Source: a phage
Length of the DNA stretch: 64,000 nt
Sequence record: PZ019084.1
Direction: 5' to 3' (one strand)
Shown: positions 417 to 20,925 of the stretch, piece after piece
How positions within the stretch are numbered: position 1 is the first letter of the stretch
Layout of the letters: each line of letters begins with the position of its first letter
Translations under genes and position numbers: made by a program
Notes under the pieces: model-generated
Databases searched by the model: none
What the model was told of the DNA's origin: nothing
Seen by the model: only the letters and a program-made list of their open reading frames with translations

Positions 417-1103
417 TTAAAAGTCGTGGGTAGAATCAGCTTCAAGAGCTACTACATAATTCGCATGTTCACCTTCAAATTTAGCAGCGCCTTGTTTACC
501 TTTTGCCCAGAGCAGAAGTTTATAATTTCCTGGTTGCATTTTCATATTTGCCATATTGATAATGAAATTAAATGTATTTTCACCATCATAATCACCAAGA
601 GTCAAAGAATATTTAACACGGGTCAAAGCAGAATCTTCCACTTTATTAAAACCGTTAATTACAATTTTACCTTCTTTTACTGTGATAGCAATTGTATCAA
701 TCTGCAGACCACGAGATACACGCAACAGCTGTTGAAGGTCTTCAGCTTTAATTTCAGTAACAACAGATGCTACCGGGAATGGAATTGGTTTATTAGGAGC
801 AACTACTGTGCTCGGATCAGCTGCTGGCCAAAAAATTGTTGAACGGGCATCAGCAATTTTAATATTTCCATCTTCTGACTGGGAAATTTCTGCATCGTCA
901 TTAACTAAGGACAGAATACCGAGAAAACCGTTCAAATCGTAAATCGCTACATCAAAATCAATAGTGTCAGAAATATTTGCTTCCGCATAAGTTGTACCAT
1001 TAACTGCGCGAGTCATAATAAATTGACCGGATTTAAGCATAATACCGGAGTTAATAGTAGCGAAATTTTTAAGCAGAGCAGTAGTATCTTTAGACAGTTT
1101 CAT
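417..1103 (-). CDS. 45: Sliding clamp gp45
   Basis: 228 aa; sequence MKLSKDTTALLKNFATINSGIMLK... matches the T4 gp45 I remember almost residue for residue. Confidence 0.95.
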   Translation of the reverse strand: MKLSKDTTALLKNFATINSGIMLKSGQFIMTRAVNGTTYAEANISDTIDFDVAIYDLNGFLGILSLVNDDAEISQSEDGNIKIADARSTIFWPAADPSTVVAPNKPIPFPVASVVTEIKAEDLQQLLRVSRGLQIDTIAITVKEGKIVINGFNKVEDSALTRVKYSLTLGDYDGENTFNFIINMANMKMQPGNYKLLLWAKGKQGAAKFEGEHANYVVALEADSTHDF

Positions 1104-1158
1104 GTAATTTCCTTCAATTCAAATGAGATTTAATTTTATAACTAATTTAATAAAGCAA

Positions 1159-1548
1159 TTAACGATTAAAATCAGCAGCAATTGTTTCCGCAACAATTTG
1201 AGCAGCAACAATTAGACGTTCATCTGCATTACCGCAATAATCATCTTCAAGGCGTTCACCACATGAAGTCATAATAAATTTAGCACCAGCATTTAGAGAT
1301 TCTGCCGTATGTTTGCGCATCAGTTCAATCCATTTATCACTCACTTCACGATCGATGGCTTCATAATACGCATGACGAGCAGGTGCAGATTTAATTTTGC
1401 TCTGAATAACTTCCATTGCGTTATCAGAAAGAGACAAAACCCATGCTCGACGAATTTTATTTTGGTTTTGTGGATTTGAATCAGAACGCACGTGTTTTGG
1501 CTGAATATCTTTTACATCAACAGTATAATTCACAGTAATTTTAGTCAT
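1159..1548 (-). CDS. rpbA: RNA polymerase-binding protein RpbA
   Basis: 129 aa ORF directly upstream of gene 45; length and position match T4 rpbA. Confidence 0.75.
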
Positions 1549-1557
1549 AATACACCT

Positions 1558-1749
1558 TTAGTCATAATAATCAGTAACAGTCCAAGCTTCATTCCTGTTG
1601 GACATTATTTTCGTATATTCTGATTTAAATGCATTCTTAAGCATAGATTCAGTAACTATATGCTCTTCATTAGAAAAATTATTTCTCAGAATATATCGTT
1701 TTATTTCAGGAATAGTTAATAGATGCTGTCCAGTTGAATATTCTGCCAC
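1558..1749 (-). CDS. Small early protein (position of T4 45.2)
   Basis: 63 aa ORF between rpbA and gene 46 region; assignment by position and length only. Confidence 0.45.
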   Translation of the reverse strand: MAEYSTGQHLLTIPEIKRYILRNNFSNEEHIVTESMLKNAFKSEYTKIMSNRNEAWTVTDYYD

Positions 1750-1759
1750 AGTTCCTCCG

Positions 1760-1767
1760 TATAAATA
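1760..1767 (+). promoter_or_regulatory. Late promoter (TATAAATA) for the HNH endonuclease gene
   Basis: Exact TATAAATA 34 nt upstream of the HNH ATG, followed by AAAGGA RBS. Confidence 0.65.
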
Positions 1768-1800
1768 TGTTTATCACTCGCTGTATCAAAAGGATATGTT

Positions 1801-2517
1801 ATGAATTATAAACTAATTTATGAAAAGTTAATCTCTAATGCTAAATCTCGAAAACTTGATTGCTATACTGAATCTCATCACATTATACCACGCTGTTTAA
1901 ATGGTAGCGATGACGCTTCAAACTTAGTAGATTTAACACCAGAAGAGCACTATGTAGCTCATCAACTTTTAGTAAAAATTTATCCTTCTGAACCAAAATT
2001 AGTCTATGCTGCTAACATGATGACAGTTTCTACGAAATACGCTAAACGTAACAATAAAACTTTCGGCTGGATTCGTCGTAAACTCTGGGAAATAGAAAAG
2101 AATAAAGAGTTCTCCCAAGAGACACGAAAGAAAATGTCCGACGCAGTAGCTAATAAAGCAAGACTAACTTGTCCACATTGCGGTAAGTCTGGATTAAGCG
2201 GGAATATGAATCGATGGCATTTTGATAACTGCCCAAATCACCCCAATCCTAAAGTTAGACCGCCAATGTCTAAAGAACACAGAAATAATATCTCAAACGG
2301 GCTTAAAGCAATCGTTCTTGAAGAAACATCATGCGAATTCTGCGGAATGATAGGCAAGAAATGCGTTATCGCAGCGCATAGAAATTTCTGCAAGAAAAAT
2401 CCAAATGGACGCAAGAAAACTGAAAAGACTGGTACTTGCGTCCATTGTGGTAAAGTTACCACGTTCGGAAATTTATCAAGATGGCATAATGATAATTGTA
2501 AATATAAACCTAGCTAA
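1801..2517 (+). mobile_element. Free-standing HNH homing endonuclease gene with C-terminal Cys/His zinc-finger repeats
   Basis: 238 aa; HNH motif ESHHIIPRCLNGSDDASNLVDLTPEEH; repeats CPHCGKSG...RWHFDNC and CVHCGKVT...RWHNDNC; only plus-strand gene in a minus-strand block; TATAAATA at 1760-1767. Confidence 0.8.
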
Positions 2518-4198
2518 TCTTAGCTAAACTAAATCTACCAACTTTTTCCATTTGAATGTGCTGACCATATTCCTGTGGGTCATGGTCTTTATGCGAAATT
2601 ATGAAGAAGTTGGTATCCTTCAAACCATCTAAAATTTTAGCCACATTTTTAATACCTTCAGCATCAAATGCACCGTCATACACTTCATCAAGAAATAAAC
2701 AACTTATTTTAACACCTGAAACTTTTTCAGCAATATCACGCCAAGTAAATAAAAGAGCAATATCAATTCGTGCTTTTTCACCTTGACTAAATGAAGCATA
2801 ACTAAAATCTTCACGACCACGGGATTTAATTGTCTCATTAAATTCTTCATCTAATGTAAACACATAATCCGCTTCCATTATTTTAAGATAATGATTAATC
2901 TGCTTATTAAATAATGGAATGTACTTTTTAATAATAGCACCTTTAATACCAGAATCTTTGAGCATATCAGTCAAAATTCCTCTATGGTATTTTTCCATTA
3001 CTAAATTAGTTTTTGTCTTAACAATTTTATCAAGTTCTTCTTGAAGCAGTGCTATTTCATCAGCATGGTCAATAAACTCAGATGATGCTTTTTCTATAGC
3101 TGCTTTAACTTTTTTAGCTTTATCTACAGTCGTGATTAGAGATTGCTTTTTATTGCGAATATCATTCGCCAACGTCTGCTGGGTTTTAATATTATCTCGG
3201 TATTCATCAACGAGAACTTTTAAATTATCACGATGTGTTGAAAGCTGTTCAAACGAATGCGTGCATTCAGAAACTTTATCTTTAATTTTAGAAACAACTT
3301 TATCACCGGAACTTAATTGTGACAAACAGGTTGGACATAATCCACCTTCGTGATACATATTAATGACTTTATTATACGAGTCAATTTTTGATTTAATTAA
3401 AAATGCTTCTTGACCGATTTTATTAAATGCATCAGTCGGGTCTTCATCCAAAACAATATTAACTAATCTTTCATTAGCTTCTTCTATTTCCGATTTTAGC
3501 GTTCTAGCTTCTTTTGCCAAATCATCATACATATTCTGCAGACGAGTAAGGTTATCACCGGTTAATTTTTTCTGACGTTCAACGTTATCATTATATATTT
3601 TAATTTGTTGGATAATACTATCTTTTTTAACATCAAGCACTTGGTTTTGTGAATTTAATTCACGTATTAGTGCTTTATTAAGCTTATCCATTTCAGCTAA
3701 TGTTCCTACCTCGAGTAGGTCTTCGACAAGCTTTCTTCTTGCAGGAGTGGATAAGCCCATAAAAGGGGTATATCCAGCCGTGCCGAGTACGACGATCTGT
3801 TTGAAACTGGCGTATGACATTCCGATAAGCTGTTCAAATTCTGCTTGGAAATCTTTACTGCTGGCAGATTCATTAAGACGTGTACCGTTAACGGTGATTT
3901 CGAAAACGTTTGGTTTTTGTCCTCTTTTGATATAGTACTTTTTCTCATCATATTCCATCCACAGTTCAACTAAAAGTTCTTTCTTATTTGTACTGTTTAT
4001 TAATTGGCCTTTCTTTACATCACGAAATGGCTTGCCAAAAAGCCCAAATGTGATGGCTTCTAACATAGTAGACTTACCACCGCCATTTCGCCCAGTAATA
4101 AGAGTTTTTTGAACCTTATCTAGTTGAATGTCAATAGGATTTCCACCTACTGACATTATATTTTGATACCTAACTCGGTTTAGTTTAAAATTCTTCAC
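2510..4198 (-). CDS. 46: Recombination endonuclease subunit gp46 (Rad50/SbcC-like ATPase)
   Basis: 562 aa; Walker A GRNGGGKST near N-terminus, long coiled-coil middle, Cys motif CPTC, C-terminal Walker B region LFLDEV; size matches T4 gp46. Confidence 0.9.
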   Translation of the reverse strand: MKNFKLNRVRYQNIMSVGGNPIDIQLDKVQKTLITGRNGGGKSTMLEAITFGLFGKPFRDVKKGQLINSTNKKELLVELWMEYDEKKYYIKRGQKPNVFEITVNGTRLNESASSKDFQAEFEQLIGMSYASFKQIVVLGTAGYTPFMGLSTPARRKLVEDLLEVGTLAEMDKLNKALIRELNSQNQVLDVKKDSIIQQIKIYNDNVERQKKLTGDNLTRLQNMYDDLAKEARTLKSEIEEANERLVNIVLDEDPTDAFNKIGQEAFLIKSKIDSYNKVINMYHEGGLCPTCLSQLSSGDKVVSKIKDKVSECTHSFEQLSTHRDNLKVLVDEYRDNIKTQQTLANDIRNKKQSLITTVDKAKKVKAAIEKASSEFIDHADEIALLQEELDKIVKTKTNLVMEKYHRGILTDMLKDSGIKGAIIKKYIPLFNKQINHYLKIMEADYVFTLDEEFNETIKSRGREDFSYASFSQGEKARIDIALLFTWRDIAEKVSGVKISCLFLDEVYDGAFDAEGIKNVAKILDGLKDTNFFIISHKDHDPQEYGQHIQMEKVGRFSLAKIS

Positions 4199-4458
4199 AA
4201 AAGATTCCTTTTAATGTATCTTTTAGACCATTCTATCATATCATCATAATCTAAAAAGTATTCATCAAATTCAGCCATGCAAACAACACCTTGTGCTGCT
4301 TTTGATGTAATATAAATTATTCCAACATATCTAGAATCTTCTTCGGTGTAATCAATATTTGCTATGAATTCATCGTTAATGTCAAATGTCGAAAACTTCA
4401 CAGTATGCATCCTTAATACAAGATACAGCCATATCTTGTAATGATTTAGGTGTGTCAT
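4195..4458 (-). CDS. Small acidic protein; true start probably the internal ATG at 4410
   Basis: Stop overlaps gene 46 start (ATGA coupling). The longest-ORF start overlaps the upstream ORF by 77 nt, so the internal Met (MHTVKFSTFD...) is more likely. Confidence 0.35.
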   Translation of the reverse strand: MTHLNHYKIWLYLVLRMHTVKFSTFDINDEFIANIDYTEEDSRYVGIIYITSKAAQGVVCMAEFDEYFLDYDDMIEWSKRYIKRNLL

Positions 4459-19036: not shown

Positions 19037-19948
19037 TTAAGATTTAAGTAAATCAACAATTTTAATTAACTTTTCACGCTCAGATTTAGCTTTACTACTC
19101 AATCCAGATAGTCTGAAAATTTCATCGTCATATTGTTGAATAGAAATATTCAGCTCTTCAATCTGCTTATTAAAATAATCAATTTGTTCAGAATGTTTTT
19201 CGTTACTACGAACTGGTACAGGTTTTGTAGGCAATGTAGTTGAACTGGATTCATCCGGGCGATAAATTAAAATACAGCTTGAACCAATAGGGCATTTTTC
19301 ACCAGATGAATATTCTAATGTTCCAGCTTCTTTTAAAACTTCAAAAGCTAAACAGAGATGATGACCCATATTAACATAATCTGTAGAGTGAGCTCTGATG
19401 TAATAATCATCTCCACGAATACTAAATTTAAAGCATTTAAGGTCTTCTGTATTATTGGTCTTAAAAATCATTTGTTTATCTAGACCTTTAGCTAATCGAG
19501 CGCCTAATGCTAATAGTCGTCGTTGATTTTCCCACAAATCTGCGATCATTTGATCGAATGATAATTTTGGCATCAGTCGACCATAAAGGTCATATCCTTT
19601 ATTGTAATTACGAAGAATTTCACTCGCGTTAATACGAGACAATGCTCCAATTTTATTAAGGGCTTTCATAATGCGATTAGATAAACTCATTCCAGACCCA
19701 TTTGTTCGCTGTAAATGTTTTTCTAATCCAAATCCAATATCAACTTTAAACTTATCTAAAATTTCTGCATGAACATCTCTGTCGATAACATTCAAATCCA
19801 AAGTTGAGTTAAATCTATGAAAAAATTTATCTGGCTCTCCACGACGAAGTACAGTCCATTCATTCATCATTTTTTTATTAACTAAAGATTTAATTACTGC
19901 ATTGACATTATTAATTACTACTGACATATTTTCCTCACTCAATTTCAA
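19037..19948 (-). CDS. Early protein with C-terminal coiled coil (possible fourth family member)
   Basis: 303 aa; similar size and C-terminal helix, but N-terminus differs (MKLSEENMSV). Confidence 0.45.
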   Translation of the reverse strand: MKLSEENMSVVINNVNAVIKSLVNKKMMNEWTVLRRGEPDKFFHRFNSTLDLNVIDRDVHAEILDKFKVDIGFGLEKHLQRTNGSGMSLSNRIMKALNKIGALSRINASEILRNYNKGYDLYGRLMPKLSFDQMIADLWENQRRLLALGARLAKGLDKQMIFKTNNTEDLKCFKFSIRGDDYYIRAHSTDYVNMGHHLCLAFEVLKEAGTLEYSSGEKCPIGSSCILIYRPDESSSTTLPTKPVPVRSNEKHSEQIDYFNKQIEELNISIQQYDDEIFRLSGLSSKAKSEREKLIKIVDLLKS

Positions 19949-20342
19949 TTTTACTAAATATACAGAATAAGATGGAACAGACTATATAAGCACCACACAC
20001 AGATTGAACTAATACCATTCCAAAGAACCAAACAATATTATCAAACAATGTCTGTTTTACGTCGAAAGGACGTAAACTTACAGTAATATTATCACCTTTT
20101 TCTATTGAAGAATACATCTCTGGGGAAATATATTCACTAAATCTATAACCATCTTTGAGTTCATATACGGCAATAAACGATAAACTAGACCCTTTTCCTT
20201 GTGTTCCTGTAATGGTATTAACTACAGTAACATCATAATCTTTATAATGCATATAATCATTAATTGCGTAATAACCATATGCAACTACTACACATAAACA
20301 ACATATCAATAAATTCAATCTTTTAATTATCAACTGTTTCAT
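19935..20342 (-). CDS. Membrane protein
   Basis: 135 aa; hydrophobic N-terminal and C-terminal segments. Confidence 0.45.
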   Translation of the reverse strand: MKQLIIKRLNLLICCLCVVVAYGYYAINDYMHYKDYDVTVVNTITGTQGKGSSLSFIAVYELKDGYRFSEYISPEMYSSIEKGDNITVSLRPFDVKQTLFDNIVWFFGMVLVQSVCGAYIVCSILFCIFSKIEIE

Positions 20343-20370
20343 AATAATCTCAATTAAAAGGGCTTAGAAC

Positions 20371-20396
20371 CATTATACCATCCTTGGTATAAAGCG
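20371..20396 (-). promoter_or_regulatory. Early promoter -10 region with spacer stem-loop (weak -35)
   Basis: Plus strand cattataccATCCTTggtataaagc: TGGTATAATG on coding strand; hairpin tacca/tggta around ATCCTT. Confidence 0.4.
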
Positions 20397-20397
20397 G

Positions 20398-20925
20398 TTA
20401 TGCGAGTACCGTCTTTAACCGTTCTTCAAACTTCCGAAGAGTATTTTGGCGTTCAGCTCTTTGCTTTTTGTAAGTTTCAATACGCTCTGAAATGAGAGTG
20501 TATCGTTCATTTACTGATTCTTTCATAAAATCAGGAATTTCACGAGAAGCTTTAATCTCGTCAAATTTATCAATAACAGCTTGCTCTTCAGCAATTAAGT
20601 TATCATACATTAAAATATCTTTCTTGATGAACTCAATATCTTCTTGAGTTACACGAGATAATTTAGATGCTTTATCCTTTTTGTACTGTTCATTAGTATC
20701 ACGAGACCAGTGTAATGTACGATTTTTATTCGTATTTTTGTAAATTTCTACAATACCAATCTCATCAATAATAACGATCCAATTCCAACGGGATTTGTAA
20801 ATTTGTCCTCCATCAACAGTGATTTCACCTCCGATTGAGATGTCGTTAAAGAACTTGCTTTGTGCTTCAGATTTAAATTTACCATCGTTGTAATTTACCA
20901 AGTTGAAAATATCTTTAGCGTTCAT
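20398..20925 (-). CDS. Hypothetical protein
   Basis: 175 aa ORF downstream of an early promoter. Confidence 0.45.
   Translation of the reverse strand: MNAKDIFNLVNYNDGKFKSEAQSKFFNDISIGGEITVDGGQIYKSRWNWIVIIDEIGIVEIYKNTNKNRTLHWSRDTNEQYKKDKASKLSRVTQEDIEFIKKDILMYDNLIAEEQAVIDKFDEIKASREIPDFMKESVNERYTLISERIETYKKQRAERQNTLRKFEERLKTVLA

Follow-up and report, generated by a model that had tools for sequence, protein, structure and literature searches.

The window, that is the whole stretch of 64,000 nucleotides of sequence record PZ019084.1 that was analysed, belongs to a T4-like genome (Tequatrovirus). Near its beginning genes 45, rpbA, 45.2 and 46 follow one another on the minus strand, with 45.2 and gene 46 at positions that agree with the T4 and RB32 annotations, and beyond gene 46 the order continues as 46.1, 46.2, 47 and a-gt (Table 1). 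A free-standing ORF of the opposite orientation, equipped with its own Shine-Dalgarno (SD) sequence, lies between 45.2 and 46. The original prediction, made from the sequence alone, had described it as the only plus-strand gene in 45 kb of minus-strand genes, and so it proved to be: if a spurious antisense ORF in gene 45 is left aside, it is the sole plus-strand ORF of at least 90 amino acids between position 1 and about 45.7 kb, and in the annotated, near-identical phage N2 the corresponding endonuclease gene is the sole plus-strand CDS across the same stretch.

Table 1. Genes and sequence features at the 45.2/46 locus (positions are those of the window).
Feature	Position	Strand	Remarks
Gene 45	417-1103	-	
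rpbA	1159-1548	-	
45.2	1558-1749	-	GTG start, extra Ala codon and SD come from the cassette; ATG in T4
Cassette	1744-2529		786 bp; T4 has 72 bp between 45.2 and 46 instead; blastn against T4
Late-promoter motif TATAAATA	1760-1767	+	Exact T4 late-promoter consensus, 41 nt before ATG; putative promoter
Promoter-adjacent conserved element TTTATCACTCGCTGTATCAAAAGG	1770-1793	+	24 nt; candidate operator
SD sequence AAGGA	1790-1794	+	6 nt before ATG
Endonuclease ORF	1801-2517	+	238 aa, ATG start; HNH, very probably Mob family
HNH catalytic core	1870-1962	+	aa 24-54 (E24, H26, H27, N41, H50, H54); invariant columns
CCHC zinc finger 1	2170-2232	+	aa 124-144; regex, model
CCHC zinc finger 2	2332-2391	+	aa 178-197; regex, model
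CCHC zinc finger 3	2437-2499	+	aa 213-233; regex, model
Tail-to-tail overlap of endonuclease ORF and gene 46	2510-2517		8 nt
Gene 46	2510-4198	-	562 aa; Rad50/SbcC-like recombination nuclease subunit
Endonuclease-linked divergent tract, 3' end of gene 46	2518-2703	-	29% mismatches with T2, ends at 2703
Own allele of the predicted homing site	2660-2683	-	Codons V-Y-D-G-A-F-D-A

The gene is not a new discovery; it had been annotated before and is uncharacterised. Its counterpart in RB32, RB32ORF054w (ABI94878.1), encodes a protein with 99.6% amino acid identity, occupies the same place in the same orientation, likewise overlaps gene 46 by 8 nt, and was recorded in 2006 as 'putative site-specific intron-like DNA endonuclease, similar to mobB'. 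Equivalent CDSs called 'homing endonuclease' are found in RB33, N2, slur07 and other phages, RefSeq uses that name in many genomes, and a 2010 survey of T4-related genomes counted two mob-like genes in RB32. Our literature search found no functional characterisation of the RB32ORF054w-type gene. Mob and Seg endonucleases are abundant in T-even phages, and the gene itself is an ordinary one. What is unusual about it is its orientation combined with a conserved late-promoter motif of its own.

The encoded protein matches PHROG 655 'homing endonuclease' with an E value of 8.6e-69. Its N-terminal ~120 amino acids are 42-44% identical to T4 MobB and MobE, and the identity to T4 MobC is 37% in the same domain (these comparisons span 110-140 amino acids). 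The sequence conforms to the pattern of the Mob-type N-terminal HNH domain (MNYxxIY...HHIIPxCxGG...NLVxLTxxEH), and in an alignment of 40 sequences E24, H26, H27, P30, G35, N41, H50 and H54 are all invariant, so the HNH motif of the original prediction has its catalytic His (H26/H27) and Asn (N41) residues in place. A profile match (E 5.6e-4) pairs the HNH segment with the corresponding domain of EcoKMcrA (6ghc), and the AlphaFold2 model of the protein (mean pLDDT 91.9) contains a beta-beta-alpha core made up of strands 24-27 and 42-45 and helix 47-60. The protein missed the threshold of Pfam PF01844 (16.9 bits vs the cut-off of 21.4 bits, E 0.0072), in NCBIfam it gave merely a sub-threshold match to the HNH region of IscB, and fold searches with the whole model were uninformative. 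Judged by its sequence, the HNH domain is a divergent one of the Mob type.

Two or three Cys/His zinc-finger repeats had been noted besides the HNH motif; using the regular expression C-x2-C-x10-13-H-x3-C we located three CCHC repeats, each of which is modelled by AlphaFold2 as a beta-hairpin followed by a helix. The Cys and His residues of finger 3 (C213, C216, H229, C233) are invariant across the wider family of 40 sequences, and in the middle region of many relatives NUMOD3 repeats take the place of the fingers. The gene is intact. Between the window and RB32 the ORF differs by 17 synonymous changes and one conservative non-synonymous change, which indicates that the protein is under purifying selection. 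We have little doubt that the ORF is a Mob-family homing endonuclease gene, and the PHROG match and the similarity to MobB and MobE bear out its earlier description as a homing-endonuclease cassette.

The borders of the cassette are sharp. In the blastn comparison homology to T4 is lost after position 1743 and comes back at 2530 (junctions 1743/1744 and 2529/2530), and both neighbouring genes are altered. The start codon of 45.2 (GTG, the reverse complement of 1747-1749) and the complement of its SD sequence (1753-1759) are found in the cassette, and the MotA-box/-10 middle-promoter-like sequence which precedes 45.2 in T4 has been lost through the replacement. On the other side the cassette encodes the C-terminus of gp46, which ends in ...SLAKIS where T4 has ...TVMV. 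Overlaps of the endonuclease gene with gene 46, ranging from 4 to 23 nt, occur in five of six lineages. A search for an intrinsic terminator 3' of the endonuclease ORF found none.

The exact late-promoter motif announced in the original prediction is present. It must be noted that in this AT-rich window the octamer TATAAATA is found 13 times against 10.65 expected, thus the motif alone is not rare, and its weight comes from its conservation: it is kept at -41 to about -46 before the homologues of 57-65% identity, which belong to three other genera (Dhakavirus, Mosigvirus and the lineage of Klebsiella phage Roth04). The homologues of 42-47% identity have only a partial late-promoter match, (C/T)TAAATA. 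SD-like sequences are located at the same place in the homologues as in the window.

Alignment with the T-even genomes shows that the gene is not shared by all of them. T4, T2 and T6 are empty, with an intergenic region of 55-72 bp at the 45.2/46 junction, and the cassette is carried by about 60 of the ~650 Tequatrovirus records (~9%). In at least six genera of the Straboviridae, homologues of 42-65% identity are located at the 3' end of gene 46 and converge with it; these lineages are Mosigvirus, Dhakavirus, Klebsiella phage Roth04, Slopekvirus, Pseudotevenvirus and two metagenomic lineages. The convergent placement is kept in eight lineages, and the upstream neighbour varies. The association between the endonuclease and gene 46 is, with homologues so placed in at least six genera, old rather than recent. 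Since the divergence of the endonuclease roughly follows that of gp46 across genera and the GC content of the cassette is native (36.4% vs 35.3% for the window), the description of the cassette as 'recently acquired' could not be upheld; the composition gives no hint of a recent foreign origin, and between the window and RB32 the cassette differs about as much (2.5%) as the flanking genes (3.2-6.9%).

The strong purifying selection and the long-lived association with a single locus, with a divergence roughly tracking that of gp46, could also be accounted for if the gene were no longer mobile and had been kept for the benefit of the phage, for instance because the enzyme cuts gene 46 of competitors and so excludes them, or because it serves mainly as a DNA-binding regulator of the 45.2-rpbA-45 / gene 46 region. 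The cassette moreover provides the start and SD sequence of 45.2 and the C-terminus of gp46, thus its deletion would be costly. We nevertheless regard such a role as quite improbable, because the gene is infrequent among Tequatrovirus records and always accompanied by a private allele of gene 46, which is the signature of gene conversion and not of a generally useful gene. Besides, exclusion of competitors and homing are not mutually exclusive.

This private allele points to gene 46 as the homing target, in line with the original prediction. Past the end of the divergent tract (2703) the window and T2 differ by just 5 mismatches in 300 nt; in comparison with T4 the differences in gene 46 extend to about 2785. 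The divergence is confined to the gene 46 side, there is no comparable tract on the side of 45.2. A segment of 231 nt of gene 46 (2530-2760) has at least 95% identity in exactly 60 records, and in 59 records a spanning query covers the end of the endonuclease gene and the tract contiguously. In the other sampled Tequatrovirus records the identity of this segment is at most 81.4%, leaving the band of 90-95% empty, and the T2-type version is a discrete haplotype found in 203 records. The same picture was obtained in four genera: carriers and empty relatives are ~30% divergent over ~190-240 nt of gene 46 adjoining the endonuclease, then the divergence drops abruptly to near zero, 15-70 nt past a group of codons for V(F/Y)DxxxD. 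The distance between this site and the end of the tract is 20 nt for the carrier/empty pair window/T2, 15 nt for Roth04/Roth01, 70 nt for 04086/CLB_P2, and at most 30 nt for Cronuts compared with EkoM5VN and D6b. Because the DNA between a homing endonuclease gene and the cleavage site must be co-converted, the break would be expected at the far edge of the linked tract.

The 24 nt coding for V(F/Y)DxxxD, which we call the D-loop site, directly follow Walker B, and in the KP15 record the corresponding place carries annotations for the D-loop and Walker B. The T2 allele codes for VFDSATDV here. DSATD is the coding of the empty alleles in three genera and DGA(F/V)D that of the carriers, with the exception of the Mosigvirus carrier, whose own site codes for DSATD. 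At the nucleotide level the carrier allele differs from the T2-type allele at 12 of the 24 positions. The T4/T6 allele is like the carrier allele at 18 of 24, thus T4 may be naturally immune. A search for single nucleotides diagnostic of carriers vs empty phages yielded only about four positions, and these fail for the Dhakavirus carrier. From these comparisons we think it probable that the target lies in the final ~250 nt of gene 46, and we slightly favour the D-loop codons as the recognition site.

The enzyme might instead recognise the 45.2/46 junction of empty phages or the very 3' end of gene 46, and the tract would then be donor DNA that hitch-hiked with the gene. Such a target would fit Slopekvirus, where phT4A (carrier) and KP15 (empty) differ at only one of the 24 positions of the D-loop site; their differences are concentrated in the ~60 nt adjoining the endonuclease, and the last scattered mismatch falls inside the D-loop site. 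It would also fit the replacement of the entire T4 spacer and of the last gp46 codons by the cassette. We consider a target at either place unlikely, because the tract ends 15-70 nt from the same site in four genera, and because the upstream neighbour, hence the sequence of the junction, varies by genus whereas the endonuclease gene always has the same place with respect to gene 46. Recognition of the D-loop codons remains the reading we prefer, and it receives further support from a conserved element next to the promoter.

This element, TTTATCACTCGCTGTATCAAAAGG, has the core TATC-N3-CGS-N2-TATCAAA, whose spacing is preserved in homologues down to 42% identity. In six of eight lineages it sits between TATAAATA (or the partial match) and the SD sequence; in lineage L100 it lies upstream of TATAAATA and overlaps it. 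The element resembles the predicted homing site. When it was scored in a fixed register against the whole of gene 46 on both strands (~3300 positions), the D-loop site was the rank-1 match in most pairings. The window element matches the T2 (empty) allele at 15 of 24 positions (rank 1) and the window's own allele at 10 of 24 (rank 123), the element of Dhakavirus 04086 matches the T2 allele at 17 of 24 (rank 1), and those of Cronuts and phT4A match the T4/T6-type allele at 18 and 19 of 24, respectively (both rank 1). Shuffling of the elements gave P values from about 1e-3 to below 5e-6 for this likeness, a signal which appeared only once the element had been defined by cross-genus conservation and scored in fixed register. 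An unguided scan of all 24-mers of 1753-1800 against gene 46 of T4, T2 and T6 gave best matches of 15-16 of 24, which is not significant (shuffle mean 15.9), and the degenerate motif TATCNNNCGSNNTATCAAA, with up to two mismatches allowed, found no site in T2, T6 or Roth01 (chance rate 1.4 per 128 kb).

In all five genera where the same-genus empty allele could be compared with the carrier's own allele, the empty allele was the better match to the element (15 v 10, 14 v 11, 14 v 12, 17 v 15 and 14 v 13), with an excess that is small, +1 to +2 of 24, in three of the five. For Cronuts (Pseudotevenvirus) the advantage of the empty allele was predicted before the empty genomes were fetched. Part of the similarity between element and site is due to the D...FD codons common to all alleles. 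If the target were at the junction or at the very end of gene 46, the element would have to be left over, for instance from an old duplication of part of the gene 46 end, or be a chance resemblance brought about by the GAT...TTTGAT codons, and it is true that the own allele is not always a poor match (for Cronuts 15 of 24, rank 1). The similarity is, however, limited to about 24 nt with the spacing fixed down to 42% protein identity, which suggests constraint rather than decay.

The likeness to a site predicted for the same enzyme raises the possibility that the element is an autoregulatory operator, a suggestion we put forward tentatively, at somewhat less than even odds. An element acting in RNA, as a 5' leader control of translation or stability, would be another way to explain its conservation. 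In the six lineages with the usual arrangement it would be part of the late transcript's 5' leader, and for homing endonucleases of T4 the gating of translation by RNA structures is known (PMC2988022). The predicted fold of the leader is not significant (-7 kcal/mol, z = -0.81), thus an SD-sequestering hairpin like those of mobE and I-TevI is unsupported, and in lineage L100 the element would be outside of the predicted transcript. Control at the RNA level would also leave the resemblance to gene 46 unexplained, and we deem it rather improbable. The placement in L100 and the leader without significant fold favour a role of the element at the DNA level.

The anatomy of the locus, the family of the gene, its scattered occurrence among relatives and its close linkage with a divergent segment at the 3' end of gene 46 are best explained by a free-standing Mob (HNH) homing endonuclease gene which would home into gene 46; we give this reading as a whole a probability of roughly 0.7. 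Late in infection the gene would be transcribed from the TATAAATA promoter in front of it, in the opposite direction to all the early genes around it. When an empty relative infects the same cell, the three zinc fingers would bind the 3' part of the relative's gene 46, at or near the V(F/Y)DxxxD codons that directly follow Walker B, some 150 nt away from the stop codon, and the HNH domain would nick or cut the DNA at the D-loop codons. Recombinational repair would then copy the endonuclease gene into the recipient and, with it, the ~190 nt of gene 46 that separate it from the break. The carrier itself would be immune since at half of the positions its allele, with DGAFD codons, departs from the sensitive DSATD allele of T2. 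More speculatively, the copy of the sensitive site at 1770-1793 could be used as an operator for self-repression, in the manner of I-TevI.

Taken further, these elements would make up a free-standing Mob-type endonuclease that represses itself through a copy of its own homing site, the Walker-B/D-loop codons of gp46, placed by its late promoter, with the gene 46 haplotypes as footprints of an arms race between at least two specificity groups. We offer this extended scenario with reserve, as something that may well turn out to be wrong. On an arms-race reading the haplotypes, which are ~20% diverged at the 3' end of gene 46, would be a T2-type with DSATD, a T4-type with DGSFD and a carrier-type with DGAFD. 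The comparison suggests a group A, whose elements mimic DSATD alleles, and a group B, whose elements mimic DG(S/P)xD; the second group is suggested by the T4/T6 allele, which resembles group B elements best.

What this work adds to the earlier annotations is a testable prediction of a homing site in gene 46, with putative sensitive and immune alleles, and possibly of a target-mimic operator. A 2010 review listed the targets of MobB, MobC and MobD as unknown. Most Mob enzymes are without a known target, and MobE could not be assayed in vitro. Comparative data alone led here to a 24-bp candidate site with presumably sensitive (T2-type) and immune (carrier) alleles, and hinted at a second specificity group. 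With site and alleles so defined, a few substrates or a single phage cross would suffice for a test. If homing is directed to the D-loop codons, the target lies in the gene for gp46, a component of the nuclease by which the breaks needed for homing are processed. This would explain why phages that are otherwise ~97% identical have sharply distinct haplotypes at the 3' end of gene 46, which matters for the use of gene 46 as a marker and for the engineering of T-even phages. To our knowledge, target-mimic self-repression has so far been described for intron-encoded T4 endonucleases only, and experimentally for I-TevI only; our literature search found no autorepression by free-standing endonucleases. 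If the promoter-adjacent copy is an operator, this kind of control would extend from an intron-encoded GIY-YIG enzyme to free-standing HNH enzymes.

It is instructive to compare the locus with the homing systems already known. MobE of T4, whose HNH domain is 42.5% identical to that of the window endonuclease over 120 amino acids, nicks the adjacent nrdB gene 122-126 nt in, at a polymorphic site (Wilson and Edgell 2009, PMC2790892). Both genes are free-standing beside an essential gene, MobE nicks inside its neighbour some 120 nt away from the junction, where a polymorphic site adjoins conserved codons, a setting like the one predicted here, and the MobE system has the same type of CCHC finger, which in T4 is encoded by a separate ORF, nrdB.1. 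They differ in that mobE lacks its own promoter and, pointing the same way as nrdA, is transcribed along with it, in that MobE has NUMOD3-type linkers and one finger and the window endonuclease three fingers, and in their targets, nrdB for MobE and, by our prediction, gene 46 for the window endonuclease. The N-terminal domain of T4 MobB is 43.7% identical over 126 amino acids, and mobB too has its own upstream promoter. However, the C-terminal half of MobB is unrelated and has no CCHC fingers, and mobB, which is absent from the window, lies between a-gt and a-gt.2 and is co-oriented with its neighbours. Of the T4 homing endonuclease genes, segD alone points the opposite way to the genes around it, as the window gene does, but it encodes a GIY-YIG enzyme and no promoter of its own was found for it, unlike the conserved late-promoter motif here.

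I-HmuI of phage SPO1 is an HNH nicking endonuclease of solved structure, with the modular layout of an N-terminal HNH domain and a C-terminal DNA-binding region. The window endonuclease is built likewise, with zinc fingers in place of the NUMOD3 and helix-turn-helix modules with which I-HmuI binds DNA; I-HmuI was not recovered by our sequence search of solved structures or by the fold searches. For the putative regulation the closest parallel is I-TevI, whose operator has 15 of 20 nt in common with its homing site and overlaps a late promoter (PMC2988022). The window has a similar arrangement, a late-promoter motif before the ORF and, adjacent to or overlapping it, a sequence like the predicted homing site, with matches of 15-19 of 24. 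I-TevI differs in being a GIY-YIG enzyme encoded in an intron of the T4 td gene, and in that its operator binding and repression are experimental results, whereas those proposed here for a free-standing HNH enzyme are predictions.

Endonuclease insertion seems to have a common hot spot at the 3' end of gene 46. At the 45.2-like/46 junction of the Klebsiella phage Matisse there is a 160-aa HNH endonuclease which, though located at the same junction, is distinct from the endonuclease of the window, and it has the same orientation as its neighbours. When gene 46 of Matisse was compared with that of KP15, a separate diverged tract of about 250 nt was found to accompany this ORF. Gene 46 of phage N2 is flanked by homing endonucleases on both sides, the second annotated one lying between genes 46 and 46.1. 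T2 (L086) and T6 (L085) have an ORF, from 3185 onwards, at the same 46/46.1 position, which is annotated only as 'hypothetical protein'. This ORF is absent from the window, where gene 46 is directly adjoined by 46.1 (4195-4458).

Endonuclease-related features in other phages (coordinates are those of the compared loci)
Feature	Locus	Coordinates	Strand	Remark
160-aa HNH endonuclease, Klebsiella phage Matisse	L093	2145-2627	-	45.2-like/46 junction, Slopekvirus
Second annotated homing endonuclease, phage N2	L089	4214-5068	-	between genes 46 and 46.1
nrdB.1 of T4	L091	1217-1468	-	encodes ...CPHCGKKVNKGNALRWHYDKCKFK, a CCHC finger typical of the window endonuclease family

Among Tequatrovirus records the 3' end of gene 46 (window 2530-2760; 1501-1720 in the T2 locus, L086) occurs as discrete haplotypes. 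The type found in phages with the endonuclease cassette (carrier type) was present in 60 records and the T2 type in 203, and a further 206 records were 80-90% identical to the carrier type; those sampled from this last set, T4 and T6 among them, were of the T4 type. The haplotypes differ by about 20% and intermediates are nearly absent, in contrast to the remainder of gene 46, which is approximately 97% identical.

Two database records deserve comment. The RefSeq record of phage ST0 (NC_041990, L096) contains an intact 238-aa copy of the endonuclease family (about 470-1186, plus strand) within a 790-bp 45.2/46 gap that carries no annotation. PV654520.1, labelled as a Pseudomonas aeruginosa phage ('Pseudomonas phage vB_PSGBLB0006'), has at 19295-20794 T4-like DNA that is 99.0% identical to window 1400-2900 and encodes an endonuclease 100% identical to that of the window; the host label of this record looks doubtful.

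In T4 a MotA box and a -10 element (ATGCTTTA-N11-TATAAT) are located directly upstream of 45.2 (L001 9263-9288, minus strand). Window 1744-1800 lacks this sequence, its place being taken by the cassette, and the one stretch of the window's minus strand that matches it comparably (2310 to 2285) falls within the endonuclease ORF.

The target-like element, the conserved 24 nt beside the predicted late promoter of the endonuclease, follows the late-promoter box TATAAATA, or a partial TAAATA match, in the six other lineages examined, and in a metagenomic lineage with a 48% identical endonuclease (L100) it lies at 150-173, upstream of and overlapping TATAAATA. In many Mob-like endonuclease ORFs found in unrelated contexts in viral metagenome contigs, TATAAATA or (G/C)ATAAATA stands merely 4-15 nt before the ATG. 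A survey of the 70 nt preceding Mob-like ORFs (loci L005-L084) detected an exact TATAAATA at 14 of the 87 starts examined, two close relatives of the window included. Expression from late promoters may be customary throughout the Mob-like endonuclease family.

The CCHC finger of T4 nrdB.1 is encoded shortly downstream of the 141-aa mobE, in a different reading frame, thus T4 mobE looks as if it had been separated from its C-terminal finger by a split. A motif scan of window 1-64000 identified no further Mob-type HNH, CCHC-finger or GIY-YIG ORFs, and tblastn with the endonuclease protein found no paralogue in the 64 kb. The window phage is poor in homing endonucleases within these 64 kb; the equivalent region of T4 contains mobB, mobC and I-TevII.
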